Below are positions 16,050 to 22,422 of a stretch of 24,000 bases of DNA, in pieces. The stretch is from Halalkalibacillus halophilus DSM 18494 (GTDB taxonomy: Bacteria > Bacillota > Bacilli > Bacillales > Alkalibacillaceae), in NCBI RefSeq assembly GCF_000423105.1, contig NZ_AUHI01000004.1:362810-386809 (forward strand), written 5' to 3'. The notes under the pieces are model-generated. The model did no database searches, was not told the origin of the DNA, and saw only the letters and a list, made by a program, of their open reading frames with translations. Made by a program: the position numbers and the translations under genes. How positions within the stretch are numbered: position 1 is the stretch's first letter; each line of letters begins with the position of its first letter.

Positions 16050-16146
16050 TGGCGGGACTGTGTGGGAATCGAACCCACCAGAGACAACACGTGCCTCTCG
16101 AGCGGTTTTGAAGACCGTGACACGCACCAGCTTTGCAACCAGCCCC
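16050..16146 (-). tRNA. selC: tRNA-Sec (selenocysteine tRNA, anticodon UCA), 97 nt with encoded CCA
   Basis: The minus strand reads GGGGCTGG...GGTCTTCAAAACC...GTGGGTTCGATTCCCAC-A-CAGTCCC-G-CCA. The 7-nt anticodon loop CTTCAAA is identical to E. coli selC, with UCA in the anticodon position. The T arm is GTGGG/TTCGATT/CCCAC. A long variable arm pairs (A)GAGGCA with TGTCTC(T) around the loop CGTGT. The acceptor has 7 bp plus a G-A juxtaposition at the 8th position. The gene is adjacent to selB, selD and selA. I could not fold the D and anticodon stems cleanly by hand. Confidence 0.85.
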
Positions 16147-16164
16147 AAAATAATTTTCTAGTTT

Positions 16165-16193
16165 ATTATACAAGCTGAGAACGTCTGTAGCAA
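16165..16193 (-). promoter_or_regulatory. Sigma-A promoter for selC
   Basis: On the minus strand the -35 is TTGCTA (16193-16188), the spacer is 17 nt, and the -10 is a perfect TATAAT (16170-16165). This places the -10 about 18 nt upstream of the mature tRNA 5' end. Confidence 0.7.
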
Positions 16194-16348
16194 CAAAGTT
16201 AACCACAATAATGTTCTTTATAAAGAATTATATCTGAAATTCCTTGGACATTTCGTATGAAATTGGATAAAATGGTTTTGAACTGTTATATTCTGTTAGG
16301 TTTATCATAAGATGATGATATATACGTTTTTGAGAGGAGTAATATCGA

Positions 16349-17434
16349 ATGGATAAATCGCTAACATTTATTGAGCCAAGGAGCGCAACAGATGAGCAGT
16401 CTTTCACTAGAATTAATGATGCTGCTAGTAAATGGATTGACAACTATTCGATGAACGTTCATGTCGTTTTCGATGACGATTTTAATATACATAGTGTCAG
16501 TGCATCTGTTAAAAGTTTATTTGGGTATACCCAAGAAGAGGTACTGAGTGCTTCGTTACTTTATTTTATTCATCCTAAACAGCATGAAGAATTAAAAGCA
16601 TTTGTACAGGGACTAGAGGAAAACAGTCGTCAGCGCATCGAGCTTCTTGTTAAAAATGCTAATAGTGAGTATATTCATTCTCAAAGCTATGCAGGAAAAA
16701 TTGTAGACCCTGAAACAGGAAAACCTTATTATGTAGCTGTAGCTCAAGATATATCAGATCAAAAGCAAGCTGCAGAAATGCTAGTCAGATCTGAGAAACT
16801 ATCAACAGCAGGGCAATTGTCTGCCTGTGTTGCACATGAAATAAGAAATCCGATCACTTCTTTAAAGGGTTTCCTTCAATTAATGGATACCAATATGAAG
16901 GGGAAAGAGGCATACCTAAAAATTATGAAAGATGAGATAGAAAAAATTGAAGCAATCTCATCTGAATTATTATATATTGCCAAACCTTCTACGAATACAT
17001 TCCAAGAAGATGATTTAATTATAATGCTTAAAGAAGTATGTACATTAATGCGCTCACAAGCACGAATAAATGATATCAAAATAAAGCAAGATTTTAATAT
17101 GAATCAATTCACACTACATTGTGATCGCTCGCATTTGAAACAGGTTTTTATTAATCTAATTAAAAATGCAATTGAAGCTATGGAAGACCCAGGCACAATA
17201 GAAGTAAATGTCTATTACAGTGACTATTTAACAATTGATGTAATAGATCAAGGTTGCGGGGTTCCTGATGAATTGAAAGCAAAATTAGGGCAACCTTTTC
17301 TAACCACTAAATCAAAAGGGACTGGGCTTGGATTAATGATTTCTAAAGATATTTTAAAGAAACATGATGCCACGATTCAAATAATCGACCATGAGCCAAC
17401 AGGAAGTATCTTTCGTGTTCAATTCTTAAAATAA
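16349..17434 (+). CDS. PAS-domain sensor histidine kinase, cytoplasmic, orphan (sporulation Kin-like HisKA/HATPase_c)
   Basis: A PAS-like N-terminal half (SVSASVKSLFGYTQEEVL...YVAVAQDIS) is followed by an H-box (CVAHEIRNPITSLKGFLQLM) and N/G boxes (INLIKNAIEAM, DQGCGVP, GTGLGLMIS). No TM segment is apparent and no response regulator lies nearby. A GAGGAG RBS sits 9 nt upstream of the ATG. Confidence 0.85.
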   Translation: MDKSLTFIEPRSATDEQSFTRINDAASKWIDNYSMNVHVVFDDDFNIHSVSASVKSLFGYTQEEVLSASLLYFIHPKQHEELKAFVQGLEENSRQRIELLVKNANSEYIHSQSYAGKIVDPETGKPYYVAVAQDISDQKQAAEMLVRSEKLSTAGQLSACVAHEIRNPITSLKGFLQLMDTNMKGKEAYLKIMKDEIEKIEAISSELLYIAKPSTNTFQEDDLIIMLKEVCTLMRSQARINDIKIKQDFNMNQFTLHCDRSHLKQVFINLIKNAIEAMEDPGTIEVNVYYSDYLTIDVIDQGCGVPDELKAKLGQPFLTTKSKGTGLGLMISKDILKKHDATIQIIDHEPTGSIFRVQFLK

Positions 17435-17449
17435 TAGGCTGGTGTTAAA

Positions 17450-19327
17450 ATGTCTCAACGAAATTATACTATCGGTATGGCTGGCCATATAGATCATGGA
17501 AAAACGGAACTTACGAAGGCATTAACTGGGACAAACACAGACAGGTTGAAAGAAGAAAAAGAACGAAGAATATCTATAGAATTAGGGTATGCTCCGCTCC
17601 TCCAATCTGAGGAACAAACGATATCGATTATAGATGCTCCAGGACATGAAAAATTTATTCGTCAAATGATTGCAGGCGTCTATTCCGTTGATCTCGTTTT
17701 ATTAATTGTTGCTGCTGATGAAGGCGTGATGCCACAAACGAAAGAACATATGGAGATTTTACATTATCTCGGCATTGAGAATGTGTGGTTTGTGATCTCC
17801 AAGGTGGATACCGTAGAGGAAGAGATGCTTTCCATTGTAGAAGAAGATTTAAGAGAACATATGAAACAATCATATTATCATGATCAGGCGATTTTTCATG
17901 TGGACTCCGTTAGCTTCCAAGGAATAAAACAATTAAAAGATGCCATCACGCAACACCTAGAGAGTTCACCTGTAAAGGATCAGTTTGGCGAATTCAGACT
18001 TGCAGTTGATCAAGTTTTTTCTATCCATGGGACTGGTACTGTTGTGAGAGGCACTATAATGAGCGGGATTGTGCAAGAAGGCGAAGAGGTTCTACTTCTC
18101 CCTTCAAATAATAGAACTCAAGTTAAAACGATTAGACAGTTTTCAAACAATGTATCTCTTGCTAAGGCGGGAAGTAGGACTGCTCTATCGTTAAGAAACT
18201 TACAAGTGAATGAGATAAAAAGAGGGGAAGTAGTTACCTCTAATTTACAAGCACTTGCTACTAGACGAGTGGACTTGGAGTTAAGGGTTAGTCCGTATTT
18301 AGATAAATGGATTAAACAACGTTCACCTATTAAACTGCATGTTAACACTAGTGAAGCATATGGTAGAATTGTTTTTTTCGATAGGAATAGAGTAGAGGAG
18401 CCAGACGAACTTCTTTATGTTCAAGTTGAATTAGACGACCCAATATATGTCCATAAAGGGGATCGTTTTGTACTTCGAAGGGCAACTCCGGTTGAAACCA
18501 TTGGAGGCGGTCGTATTATAGTCCCACAAGCCTCGAAACATAAATTTGGGATGGATACAGTGGAATGGTTAAAAGAAAGGTCTGAAGCCTCCTTGGAGGA
18601 ACAAATACTATTGTTAATCGAAGAGGATCCGGGAATCGATTTTACCAAATTGAAAAGTCAATTCACCTCCTCTTTGTCAGAAGTAGAAGATAAGTTTCAT
18701 GAATTACAAAAAGAGAGAATCGTACAAATAGATTACAAATTATATACTGTTAATCAGGTGAAATATGCAGAAGATTCGTTAATTAGGACTTTAACAAAAT
18801 TCCATGAAAGTAACCCGATGAAAAAAGGATTAAATAAATCAGAAGTCATTCAATCATTACCTTATCAAACCAAACGTGAAATGACGTTACTTCACTACTT
18901 TATTGACCAAGAAGTTATTGAACAGTCGATGCATTATATTTACCTAAAAGGATTTTCACCTTATGTTCCAGACAACTTAAAGGAAATGGTAGATTCATAC
19001 TTGAACCAGTTGTATAAAGACAAATATGAGGTGAAGGAGTATAGCAATTACTTAACTGAGATGTCAGCTTCAGAGCAAGTAAATGTGATAAACTATTTAA
19101 TTGATCAGAGTCGAATTGAACCTCTAACCGACGAACTAATGATGGATTCTTCAAGGTTTAAAGAGAGTGTGGACCAACTAAAGGGAATTTCTGAAGAGTC
19201 ATTCTCTTTAAAAGAAGCGAAAGATGAATTGGGTCTATCAAGAAAGTATCTTATACCGTTACTAGAATTAATGGATCATAAAGGGATAACCATTCGACAG
19301 GAAAATGTACGTGTATGGAATTCGTAA
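17450..19327 (+). CDS. selB: Selenocysteine-specific translation elongation factor SelB
   Basis: The N-terminal EF-Tu-like G domain (GMAGHIDHGKTELTKALTG, DAPGHEKF, SKVD) is followed by a long C-terminal extension of about 250 aa, as expected for the winged-helix SECIS-binding domains. The protein is 625 aa. The gene starts 15 nt after the kinase stop codon. Confidence 0.9.
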   Translation: MSQRNYTIGMAGHIDHGKTELTKALTGTNTDRLKEEKERRISIELGYAPLLQSEEQTISIIDAPGHEKFIRQMIAGVYSVDLVLLIVAADEGVMPQTKEHMEILHYLGIENVWFVISKVDTVEEEMLSIVEEDLREHMKQSYYHDQAIFHVDSVSFQGIKQLKDAITQHLESSPVKDQFGEFRLAVDQVFSIHGTGTVVRGTIMSGIVQEGEEVLLLPSNNRTQVKTIRQFSNNVSLAKAGSRTALSLRNLQVNEIKRGEVVTSNLQALATRRVDLELRVSPYLDKWIKQRSPIKLHVNTSEAYGRIVFFDRNRVEEPDELLYVQVELDDPIYVHKGDRFVLRRATPVETIGGGRIIVPQASKHKFGMDTVEWLKERSEASLEEQILLLIEEDPGIDFTKLKSQFTSSLSEVEDKFHELQKERIVQIDYKLYTVNQVKYAEDSLIRTLTKFHESNPMKKGLNKSEVIQSLPYQTKREMTLLHYFIDQEVIEQSMHYIYLKGFSPYVPDNLKEMVDSYLNQLYKDKYEVKEYSNYLTEMSASEQVNVINYLIDQSRIEPLTDELMMDSSRFKESVDQLKGISEESFSLKEAKDELGLSRKYLIPLLELMDHKGITIRQENVRVWNS

Positions 19328-19370
19328 TTTATCTTTTAAAGTGAATGTATTCTGCGACGATCAAACAAAT

Positions 19371-19419
19371 AAAACTCCAATGTAATTCATTTTAAAATGG
19401 AATTACACTGGAGTTTTTT
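19371..19419. terminator. Bidirectional terminator between convergent selB and selD
   Basis: An 18-position stem pairs 19371-19388 with 19400-19417, with one A-C mismatch. It is flanked by AAAA on one side and TTTTTT on the other. Confidence 0.85.
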
Positions 19420-19458
19420 AATTAATGGCCACCTAATTCGAAAAGTATTGCCAGAGGT

Positions 19459-20517
19459 TTAGTTAACATAAATCGGATATGGTTGTTGTTCAGATACTTC
19501 TCCGATAACCTTAGCTCCGAGTGAGCCAGTAGCATTTAATTTTTCTACATAGGATTTGGCCTGTTCAGCAGGTAGAGAAACTAATAGCCCACCTGAAGTG
19601 ATTGCGTCAGCGAGGATTACCCGTTGAATTTCCGTAATCTCATTTGAGAACGAAATAGATGATTCTAACCATTTTAAGTTTTCTTTACTACCACCAGGTA
19701 TGGCTCCTTTTTCAGCTAGCTCTGAAGTTCCTTTGATTACTGGAACTTGTTCGTTAAAGATCGTAAACGTTTTATTACTACCACGAGCCATTTCTAAAGC
19801 ATGGCCTAATAAGCCAAATCCAGTAACATCTGTAACTGCATGGGCATTACACTCATGTAAAAAAGATGCAGCCTTTTTATTCAATTCTTTCATCCAGTAG
19901 ATTGCTTCATTAGATATATGTTCAGGAGCGAATCCTTTTTTTACAGCTGTAGTAATGATTCCGCCACCAATAGGTTTTGTTAATACAAGTAGATCTCCAA
20001 CTTGACTACTTGTGTTTGTTAAAACTTTATCAGGATGAGCAATACCGGTTACTGCCATGCCGAATTTTGGTTCTAGATCATCGATGGAGTGGCCACCAAT
20101 AATGGAGCCTCCAGCTTCATGGACTTTATCTTCTGCTCCTTGAAGGATAAAAGACAACATATCAGCACCATATTTTTTTACAGAGAAATTCGTAATATTC
20201 AGTGCAGTTTTCACTTCGCCTCCCATTGCGTACACATCGCTCATAGCATTCGCAGCGGCTATTTCACCAAAAGTATAAGGATCATCGACAATAGGTGTAA
20301 AATAATCAACTGTTTGAATGAGAGCAATGTCATCCGTGAGTTTAAACACACCAGCATCGTCTGAACTATTTTGGCTGAATAAAACGTCGTCATTTTTTGG
20401 ATGTACTTTTACTTGACTCAACACGTGAGCCAGTTCGCTTGGCGCGAGTTTACATCCTCAACCAGCTTTGGTTGAAAGAGAAGTTAATCGGATGATTTCA
20501 TCTTCACTTTTATTCAT
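19459..20517 (-). CDS. selD: Selenophosphate synthetase SelD, Sec-containing form (352 codons; codon 20 = in-frame UGA read as selenocysteine)
   Basis: The ORF track starts this gene at 20424 (TTG). Reading the same frame upstream gives ATG(20517) MNKSEDEIIRLTSLSTKAG-TGA-GCKLAPSELAHVLSQV..., which recreates the SelD N-terminal glycine-rich loop. The UGA falls where E. coli SelD has its catalytic Cys (G-C-G-C-K). A GGGGG RBS and a TATAAT -10 (20550-20545) lie upstream. The rest of the protein is a clear SelD/AIR-synthase fold (DDAGVF, DYFTPIVDDPY..GEIAAANAMSDVYAMGG). Confidence 0.88.
20458..20460 (-). other. Recoded UGA (Sec) codon of selD
   Basis: The plus strand TCA at 20458-20460 is a minus-strand TGA, in frame between codons G19 and G21. 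The downstream mRNA (CUCGCGCCAAGCGAACUGGCUCACGUG) contains partial dyads (GCCA/UGGC, CGCG/CGUG) that could form a SECIS-like structure. This was not verified by folding. Confidence 0.8.
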
Positions 20518-20659
20518 TTCCCATACCCCCAATCCACTGATTTCATTATACGTGATATAAGATAAATAGAAAACTAAGCCAATTGGACAATTAAAAATGA
20601 TTGAATTTTAAAGGGTATTCTTTTAAGCTAGAAGTAATATACAACTAGGAGGAATTGGA

Positions 20660-20899
20660 ATGAGCTATAAAGTATCTATCGAATTTTGCATGCAGTGAAA
20701 CTATGCGCCAAAAGCTGCGAGTTTCGCAGATGAATTATTTACACATTTTCGTCATGACATTTCAGAAATGAAACTGATCCCTGCATCGGGTGGAGCATTT
20801 GAAGTAAAAATAGACGGAAATAAAATTTATTCTAAGTTAGATACAGGCGTGTTTCCAAAGTCTGAAGATATAATCAATGATATTCACACCATGAAATAA
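20660..20899 (+). CDS. Rdx-family (SelW/SelT/SelH-like) thioredoxin-fold selenoprotein, 79 codons with in-frame UGA at codon 13 (C-M-Q-U motif); absent from the ORF track
   Basis: The ATG at 20660 follows an AGGAGG RBS (20647-20652). The translation is MSYKVSIEFCMQ-U-NYAPKAASFADELFTHFRHDISEMKLIPASGGAFEVKIDGNKIYSKLDTGVFPKSEDIINDIHTMK. This fits the Rdx pattern IE[YF]C-x-x-[CU]...[RK]A...L...F....L.P...G.FE[VI]..[DN]G..I[YW]SK...G.FP. Both halves are in one frame across TGA 20696-20698. A hairpin follows the UGA and a terminator-like stem follows the stop. Confidence 0.85.
20715..20729 (+). promoter_or_regulatory. Candidate bacterial SECIS hairpin of the Rdx-like gene
   Basis: A perfect 6-bp stem pairs CTGCGA with TCGCAG around the apical GTT. 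Read as a 5-bp stem, the loop is AGTTT. The stem starts 16 nt after the UGA, inside the coding sequence. G/U in the apical loop is typical of bacterial SECIS elements. Confidence 0.6.
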
Positions 20900-20906
20900 T
20901 TAACCC

Positions 20907-20941
20907 AAACCCACCGAATAAGTAAGAATTTCGGTGGGTTT
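20907..20941 (+). terminator. Terminator-like hairpin after the Rdx-like gene (no strong U tract)
   Basis: A 12-bp perfect stem pairs AAACCCACCGAA with TTCGGTGGGTTT, with an 11-nt loop. The following sequence is ATGTATAAAAT rather than a T-run. Confidence 0.55.
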
Positions 20942-21000
20942 ATGTATAAAATAGGGACAGGAAAACGGTTTTACTTCAATAATAGAACGGAGATACAATT

Positions 21001-22422
21001 ATGAACGATAAAATGAGACTTATCCCTTCCATACATCAGCTAATGCTAGATGATCGAATTCAATTCATTCAAAGTGAGTATGAGTTGACCAGTGTAGAAC
21101 TAAAACAAGTATTACAAGAATCTTTGAGTGAATTTAGAGAGTCTATTTTTGCAGAAAAAGTAAGTTTAAATAGCAAAGAAGAAGTAATGGATCATATCTA
21201 TGTTTTAACTAAGAGATATAGTGATCAGATTTCTACACCCAATCTTCAACAAGTAATTAATGCTACAGGAACAGTTCTTCATACAAATCTGGGGCGAGCT
21301 CGCCTTTCTAAATCTTCTCTTGATGCTTTACAACAAATTGGAGCAAATTACTCCTCTTTAGAGTTTGATATCAAAAGTGGTAGGAGGGGATCTAGGCATG
21401 ACCTAGTGGAATCGCAATTAATACATTTAACAGAAGCAGAGGCTGCTATGACAGTTAATAATAATGCGGCAGCGGTCTATCTGATACTGTCTGCTTTTGC
21501 CAAAAATCAAGAAGTAATTGTGTCTAGAGGTGAGTTAGTAGAAATCGGAGGAAGTTTTCGGGTATCTACAATAATGGAAGAAAGCGGCGCACAATTAGTG
21601 GAAGTAGGAACAACGAATAAAACGCACTTATATGATTATACGGAAGCAATAACGTCTGAGAGTAGCATGCTTATGCGTGTCCACACAAGTAACTTTTATA
21701 TGAAAGGTTTCACTTCCAGTGTAGAAAGAGAAGAACTTATTAAAACCTCAAAGCAAGAAGAATTACTTTATTATGAGGATCTTGGAAGTGGCATGATTTA
21801 TGACTTGAAACAGCATCAAATAGGCTCAGAACCTAGTGTGGCCGATGTTATTCGCACAGGCGCAGACCTTGTCTCATTTAGTGGAGATAAGCTTTTAGGA
21901 GGGCCACAAGCTGGGATTATTGTTGGAAAAAAAGAATGGATAAATAAATTAAAGAAGCATCCACTCGCGCGGGTTCTTCGCATGGATAAATTCTCGTATG
22001 CTGCCTTAGAACAGACACTTAAAGATTATACGAAGGGTTCAGATTTTTTAAGAAGTCAAAACCCAACTATTAGGGATATATTAAAGCCTGCTAGTGAACT
22101 GAGGCAAGAGGTAGAAGCAAAATTAGCCGAATTAAATGACTTAAAAATGTTGAAAGTTTACGGAAAAGATATTATATCGAAAGTGGGAGGGGGGACGCTT
22201 CCAGAAGTTGAACTGGATTCATACGGAATTGCAATAAAGTCTGAAAGTATAAATAGTATGGAAATCCAAGAACTTTTAAGAAGTGATCAGCAACCAATTG
22301 TTTGTAGAATCGAACACGAAGCTTGTGTTTTGGATTTTCGAACACTTGATTGGGAAGAACAAAAAAGATGTATGAATGCTATAGTGGAGTTGGATAAACA
22401 ATTACGTGAAGAACTGTTATAA
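21001..22422 (+). CDS. selA: L-seryl-tRNA(Sec) selenium transferase SelA
   Basis: The 473-aa protein carries SelA signatures (INATGTVLHTNLGRA, VSRGELVEIGGSFR) and the PLP-lysine region FSGDKLLGGPQAGIIVGKK. Confidence 0.92.
   Translation: MNDKMRLIPSIHQLMLDDRIQFIQSEYELTSVELKQVLQESLSEFRESIFAEKVSLNSKEEVMDHIYVLTKRYSDQISTPNLQQVINATGTVLHTNLGRARLSKSSLDALQQIGANYSSLEFDIKSGRRGSRHDLVESQLIHLTEAEAAMTVNNNAAAVYLILSAFAKNQEVIVSRGELVEIGGSFRVSTIMEESGAQLVEVGTTNKTHLYDYTEAITSESSMLMRVHTSNFYMKGFTSSVEREELIKTSKQEELLYYEDLGSGMIYDLKQHQIGSEPSVADVIRTGADLVSFSGDKLLGGPQAGIIVGKKEWINKLKKHPLARVLRMDKFSYAALEQTLKDYTKGSDFLRSQNPTIRDILKPASELRQEVEAKLAELNDLKMLKVYGKDIISKVGGGTLPEVELDSYGIAIKSESINSMEIQELLRSDQQPIVCRIEHEACVLDFRTLDWEEQKRCMNAIVELDKQLREELL

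Follow-up and report, generated by a model that had tools for sequence, protein, structure and literature searches.

Many bacteria carry a selenophosphate synthetase (SelD) that itself contains selenocysteine (Sec), the enzymes of Haemophilus influenzae and of clostridia being examples. In these proteins (family TIGR00476, motif UxxK), the UGA codon stands at the position equivalent to Cys17 of Escherichia coli SelD, in an N-terminal glycine-rich loop, and a lysine follows three residues further on; a SECIS element lies directly downstream within the coding region, and selA and selB are found in the neighbourhood. The mammalian SEPHS2 and the archaeal SPS2 obey the same logic, as the enzyme that provides the selenium donor is itself a selenoprotein, but their SECIS is located in the 3' UTR and their Sec is made via PSTK and SepSecS instead of SelA. 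The idea of an SPS2-type autoregulation dates from the literature of the 1990s. Among bacterial selenoproteins, FdhA and SelD were reported to be the most widespread (Zhang et al. 2006), and a later census placed SelD as the second most widespread family (Peng et al. 2016, PMC5029168), counting selenoprotein SelD in 383 organisms and SelW-like proteins in 35 (Table S3). That census already includes the organism studied here, Halalkalibacillus halophilus DSM 18494, as SelD+, SelA+, SelB+, YbbB-, YqeB- and YqeC- (Table S1), that is, as a Sec-utilising bacterium with neither the selenouridine nor the Se-cofactor trait, and attributes two known selenoproteins to it (Table S2).

The SelD of H. halophilus shows no categorical difference from the Sec-containing bacterial enzymes and shares all of the above features with them. 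Its motif is U-G-C-K, comparable to the C-G-C-K of E. coli, whereas U-A-A/S-K dominates the wider sample, and its host is an aerobic, halophilic bacterium of the Bacillus type, whereas selenoproteins are most abundant in anaerobes. The structurally characterized enzymes of E. coli (3U0O) and Aquifex aeolicus (2YYE/2ZOD) align over nearly their full length and share the GAG-C/U-GCK loop, although the E. coli protein is a Cys form that needs neither recoding nor SECIS. On the basis of the sequence comparisons presented below, it seems very likely (probability of about 0.95) that this selD gene encodes a 352-residue selenophosphate synthetase with a UGA-specified Sec at the catalytic residue 20. 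Since the family is widespread and this genome had already been surveyed, the reading of the UGA as Sec is correct, yet textbook and already known in kind.

The window, that is, the whole stretch of 24,000 nucleotides that was analysed, contains the complete machinery for the bacterial synthesis and insertion of Sec next to selD:

16050..16146, minus strand: selC, the tRNA-Sec, anticodon UCA (ARAGORN; Rfam RF01852, 57.7 bits)
16349..17434, plus strand: sensor kinase with PAS, HisKA and HATPase domains (Pfam), ending 15 nt ahead of selB
17450..19327, plus strand: selB, Sec-specific elongation factor of 625 aa (TIGR00475, 366 bits; WP_027963281.1)
21001..22422, plus strand: selA, Sec synthase of 473 aa (TIGR00474, 531 bits; WP_027963283.1)

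The scores of selB and selA are far over their respective equivalog cutoffs. The four genes selA, selB, selC and selD are all found in one 6.4-kb block (16050-22422) made up of the tRNA-Sec, the kinase, selB, selD, a SelW-like/Rdx gene and selA, with the tRNA-Sec, selB and selA within 4.5 kb. The selD gene itself lies on the minus strand, and its main elements are the following:

19459..20517, minus strand: entire selD gene from ATG to TAA, 352 codons with Sec20 counted and the stop left out; product of about 37.5 kDa
20515..20517, minus strand: ATG start codon of selD, read from the sequence
20458..20460, minus strand: Sec codon UGA, residue 20, aligned to the catalytic Cys17 of E. coli SelD
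20422..20424, minus strand: GTG valine codon, the "start" of the ORF finder, within the apical loop of SECIS hairpin 2
20545..20550, minus strand: candidate -10 box TATAAT of selD, read from the sequence

The program-made list of open reading frames gives selD 321 codons. An earlier note, made from the sequence alone, had proposed that the same frame continues upstream through a single TGA to an ATG at 20517, so that 31 codons were lost from the list, and direct reading of the minus strand bears this out: ...GGGGGTATGGGAA ATG AAT AAA ... AAA GCT GGT TGA GGA TGT AAA ..., with TAA at 19461-19459 as the stop codon. Translated, this frame starts with MNKSEDEIIRLTSLSTKAG-U-GCKLAPSEL..., in agreement with the N-terminal peptide that had been put forward, and the G-rich ribosome-binding site invoked for it is found as a Shine-Dalgarno-like GGGGG run at 20530-20526, 8 nt upstream of the ATG. 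Only the codon at which the listed frame was said to begin has to be corrected: the note had a TTG at 20424, but codon 20424-20422 is GTG and the TTG is the next codon (20421-20419). A methionine start at the homologous position is present in three of the four sister loci, the Piscibacillus-like contig being the one where it was not seen.

Upstream of this start, the TATAAT at 20550-20545 was not among the sites reported by the promoter scan of the window, which missed it because the -35 element is weak; that scan of promoters and terminators returned seven sites, as against six expected, and no terminators. A 10-codon upstream ORF beginning with the ATG at 20546 (minus strand) would terminate within an ATGA that also contains the start codon of selD. 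Since its ATG overlaps the putative -10 box, this small ORF is probably not transcribed.

The relevance of the 31 additional codons can be evaluated from profile searches, for which Cys was used in place of U. The full-length protein reaches 375.5 bits against TIGR00476 (cutoff 125) and covers profile positions 1-310 of 311, while it obtains 331.6 bits against NF002098, whose curated cutoff is 299. The 321-aa form covers only positions 31-310 of TIGR00476 with 340.9 bits, and its 292.9 bits against NF002098 are under the cutoff. Thus, the extension contributes about 35 bits on TIGR00476 and renders the match complete from the first profile position. Residues 7-340 align to the E. coli SelD structure (PDB 3u0o, 2e-65), and in this alignment KAG-U-GCK lies over GAG-C-GCK, so that U20 falls on Cys17 and K23 on Lys20, the correspondence that the earlier note had suggested checking. 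The A. aeolicus SelD (PDB 2yye) is matched at 1e-67, and the PurM-like AIRS and AIRS_C domains (PF00586 and PF02769) are recorded for a protein identical to the 321-aa form.

In order to follow the evolution of the recoded codon, 80 related selD loci were taken from species-representative genomes; the best match of this genome-contig scan was 53% identical, and the source genome was not in the set. The codon at the Sec column is TGA in 59 loci, TGC in 15 and TGT in five, a Cys codon being found in 20 of the 80. A second set was made up of closer relatives with public SelD calls of about 320 aa (Tenuibacillus multivorans, the Piscibacillus-like contig, Thalassobacillus devorans and one further genome). 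All four of these sister genera have the TGA in an identical KAG-U-GCK context, and a pattern scan of metagenome contigs retrieved 37 more genuine selD 5' ends of the UGCK type with TGA. The two elements expected of a Sec/Cys pair, an in-frame UGA facing Cys in homologues and the retention of the UGA in orthologues, are therefore both observed. When the five species are compared, the stretch of 14 codons that leads up to the TGA has 34/4/73 differences by codon position, as compared to 30/8/54 for the codons downstream. This third-position bias, similar to that of the downstream codons, indicates that the segment 5' of the TGA is translated. Together with the gain in profile score and the conservation of the TGA in the five species, it makes the extension more than a chance open frame.

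These data bear on two alternative interpretations. According to the first one, translation would really start at the GTG at 20424 (or at the TTG at 20421), SelD would have 321 residues and the upstream frame would be fortuitous. This is the protein delivered by ORF finders and by the call for this gene in the public protein collection, and shortened SelD records of about 320 aa exist for relatives too. Nevertheless, such a protein would miss profile positions 1-30 and with them the catalytic Sec/Cys, as the earlier note had recognized for the residue itself, as well as the lysine. In addition, codon 20424 has no Shine-Dalgarno sequence upstream and is situated inside a hairpin loop, the 14 codons that precede the TGA show, in five species, the substitution pattern of selected coding sequence, and all the relatives' calls of about 320 aa whose DNA was compared have the same TGA-containing frame upstream. 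We regard this interpretation as very unlikely; the short ORF of 321 aa is artefactual and results from the UGA being taken for a stop. According to the second one, the TGA would be a nonsense mutation in a pseudogene or a sequencing error for TGC or TGT. It differs from these codons by a single base, TGT is used by the nearest Cys-type relatives, and both assemblies that contain this selD sequence may stem from the same reads. Yet, TGA stands at this exact codon in four other genera, in the 37 metagenome sequences of the UGCK type and in 59 loci of the wider sample of 80. Both flanks of the codon are under purifying selection, a conserved and covarying hairpin follows it (see below), and selA, selB and selC are intact beside selD. 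The probability of this second interpretation is hence very small.

The hypothesis that selD is a Sec-encoding gene also has to be weighed against a decoding of the UGA by other means, either through a reassigned genetic code or through near-cognate read-through as Cys or Trp. Of 20 large ORFs present in the window, 18 end in TAA, two in TAG and none in TGA, so that there is no local instance of UGA acting as a stop. However, all 20 of these ORFs are intact under translation table 11 and none has an internal TGA, and TGA is an ordinary stop in the sister genomes, where it closes 2/8, 5/8, 4/7 and 1/7 of the long ORFs. That the window has no TGA stops reflects a preference for TAA or a small-sample effect, not a reassignment. 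Moreover, selD has a dedicated tRNA-Sec, selB and selA as neighbours, and the only two in-frame TGAs seen are both at known Sec positions (UxxK and CxxU). Only minimal credence can be given to such an alternative decoding, and the decoding of this UGA as Sec is preferred.

If so, a SECIS element is expected shortly after the UGA. The bacterial model used by bSECISearch (PMC13188914) specifies an apical loop of 3-9 nt on a stem of 4-16 bp, a G as first or second nucleotide of the loop, mostly with G or U after it, a spacing of 16-37 nt from the UGA to the loop, and a minimum free energy (MFE) of -7.5 kcal/mol or lower. The following structures were predicted downstream of the selD UGA:

20414..20432, minus strand: SECIS hairpin 2, nt 29-47 counted from the U of the UGA, stem UGGCUCA/UGAGUCA and loop CGUGU; proposed SelB-binding element
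20435..20447, minus strand: hairpin 1, nt 14-26 from the UGA, UCGC-GCCAA-GCGA; putative accessory hairpin, located ahead of hairpin 2
20399..20457, minus strand: whole predicted structure, with an outer helix GGAUGUA/UACAUCC around hairpins 1 and 2

Hairpin 2 fits the model in loop (5 nt), stem (7 bp), G-U (loop positions 2-3), spacing (32 nt) and energy. Folded as 22 nt with its flanks, it reaches -7.7 kcal/mol (z -2.7), right at the threshold, and the bare stem has -6.7 kcal/mol, which means that hairpin 2 alone is predicted to be only marginally stable in an AT-rich genome. Hairpin 1 contributes -4.3 to -5.3 kcal/mol. The 74-nt region folds at -21.1 kcal/mol (z -2.9), a stability reached by one of 200 shuffles, whereas the fold of a 51-nt single sequence is not significant (z -0.83). 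The outer helix is conserved only in part among the relatives. The folding of this single sequence is not decisive. The scan of the window at Rfam gathering thresholds has the tRNA-Sec as its sole match, with no curated bacterial SECIS family.

Covariation was studied in an ungapped alignment of 42 selD sequences. The two-hairpin structure has 86.8% of its cells paired, as compared to 21-48% in slid controls, and eight of its 13 pairs have changed on both sides. None of 500 shuffles reaches the observed pairing values, with the caveat that shuffles ignore relatedness and codon structure. For hairpin 2, compensatory changes affect six of the eight aligned pairs; for instance, the window has GCU...AGU (Ala...Ser) where other sequences have GCG...CGU (Ala...Arg) or GCA...UGU (Ala...Cys), and the corresponding pair of Thalassobacillus is UCG...CGG. 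RNAalifold recovers only five of the hairpin 2 pairs from the 42 sequences, with a weak consensus energy of -0.91, and for this reason explicit pair counting and a comparison between Sec-type and Cys-type genes were preferred. Cys-type selD genes were taken as the control because the hairpin region is also coding sequence, subject to constraint at the protein level. Of the 59 Sec-type genes, 42 carry a model-compliant hairpin of -7.5 kcal/mol or lower, but only three of the 20 with Cys do so (Fisher p = 1.5e-5). In the closest relatives that have a Cys-type gene (Halolactibacillus, CGCK...), only two to three of the eight hairpin 2 pairs are retained. Judging from these sequences, hairpin 2 appears to be largely absent from Cys-type selD genes. 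The earlier note had advised folding the region 3' of the UGA, and the SECIS-like hairpin found there is backed both by covariation and by the Cys-form control. One feature has to be read with caution: across the homologues, the conserved valine codon and the unchanging G-U of the loop are the same nucleotides, so that the invariance cannot be attributed solely to a role of the RNA.

In selD genes of the UGCK type, the two hairpins directly abut each other after the UGA (alignment columns 16-28 and 29-47; 20414-20447 in the window), which puts the G-U loop at 32-33 nt from the UGA, near the upper limit allowed for a bSECIS. This long spacing, the additional conserved hairpin ahead of hairpin 2 and the borderline energy are the points in which H. 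halophilus differs from the model. Most selD genes of the UGCK type have an equivalent of hairpin 1 (GGUCC-NNN-GGACC), which is 87% paired. Hairpin 1 was also considered as the SelB-binding element and rejected: its spacing of 14 nt is below the minimum of 16, and its loop has no conserved G in the homologues (CACAA or CUAGU in some of them). Outside of this group, many Chloroflexota selD genes have hairpin 2 too (GGCGCAG-GUN-CUGCGCC), and deltaproteobacterial selD genes have instead a hairpin at a spacing of 17-20.

The following mechanism may be proposed for the expression of this gene. Translation would start at the ATG at 20517 and, once the ribosome reaches the UGA at 20460-20458, SelB loaded with Sec-tRNA(Sec) would bind SECIS hairpin 2 just downstream, preceded by the small hairpin 1 in a putative accessory role, and would deliver Sec in place of termination. 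The resulting protein, with a Sec-Gly-Cys-Lys (UxxK) motif in its N-terminal glycine-rich loop, would then make the selenophosphate used by SelA. The earlier note had pointed to the autocatalytic dependency that this entails; this is not a new insight, as the self-dependency of a Sec-containing SelD is discussed in PMC1794560. Biologically, this gene is a further case of a well-described arrangement, in which a Sec-dependent SelD may keep the Sec trait "locked in", and the finding raises no new question.

The main importance of this locus concerns annotation, as standard ORF calling yields a 321-aa SelD devoid of its catalytic residue and also cuts the neighbouring SelW-like gene to a 43-aa fragment. 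Named public SelD records of about 320 aa exist for Tenuibacillus, Piscibacillus, Alkalibacillus, Schinkia and Thalassobacillus. The upstream TGA-containing frame was found in the DNA of the Tenuibacillus and Thalassobacillus records and in the metagenome contig that encodes the Piscibacillus protein, and the lengths of the remaining three records suggest the same systematic truncation. The gap in accession numbers between WP_027963281.1 (SelB) and WP_027963283.1 (SelA) hints that RefSeq may hold the full-length SelD of H. halophilus.

The second recoded gene of the window is located between selD and selA:

20660..20899, plus strand: SelW-like/Rdx gene of 79 codons with a CxxU motif, UGA at 20696-20698
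20715..20729, plus strand: candidate SECIS hairpin of this gene, CUGCGA-GUU-UCGCAG, 22 nt after the UGA

Its product matches Pfam PF10262 (3.4e-22) over profile positions 1-73 of 74 and obtains 66.9 bits against TIGR02174, whose cutoff is 34.2. The motif reads C10-M-Q-U13 within the peptide MSYKVSIEFCMQ-U-NYAPK..., and the ORF list gives only the last 43 codons (20768-20899). The gene with its candidate SECIS is conserved in two sister loci, that of Tenuibacillus and the fourth one. In the 50 nt that follow its UGA, the MFE prefers a fold other than the candidate hairpin (z -1.3). SelD and Rdx probably account for the two selenoproteins of the published count, an equation that we infer, given that the census table names no proteins. 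In the Piscibacillus-like contig (about 5553-5800), the Rdx homologue seems to have lost its frame through an insertion of 2 nt within the SECIS hairpin (GAGUCUCUCGCAG vs GAGUCUCGCAG), which makes it either a pseudogene or an assembly error. A terminator-like hairpin is seen 3' of the Rdx gene in the window, at about 20907-20940.

The surroundings of the sel genes have a Bacillus-type synteny (mutL, miaA, hflX, glnR, glnA, lexA, tkt, sirA, ccdA, ccdC, yneK/DUF2621 and aconitase), and the block fills the gap between yneK/DUF2621 and citB. A Sec block occupies the same site in the Tenuibacillus, Piscibacillus-like, Thalassobacillus and fourth sister loci. It looks like an inserted island and may hold the entire selenoproteome of the organism. 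A broader scenario, which is possible but rather doubtful, would combine these observations: the island would be self-contained and equal to the whole selenoproteome, its machinery, including the Sec-dependent SelD, would serve a single SelW-like protein of 79 residues, a dedicated PAS kinase would be translationally coupled to selB, and the selD SECIS would represent a conserved tandem two-hairpin type with an unusually long spacing of 32-33 nt. Only this compact island, with one apparent client protein and a selB-coupled kinase, might deserve a closer look. The sensor kinase (16349-17434) has no response regulator adjacent to it and is probably co-transcribed with selB. In all four sister loci, an orthologue (41-52% identical) abuts or overlaps selB, and none was seen in the other loci compared, which suggests a clade-specific kinase-selB operon.
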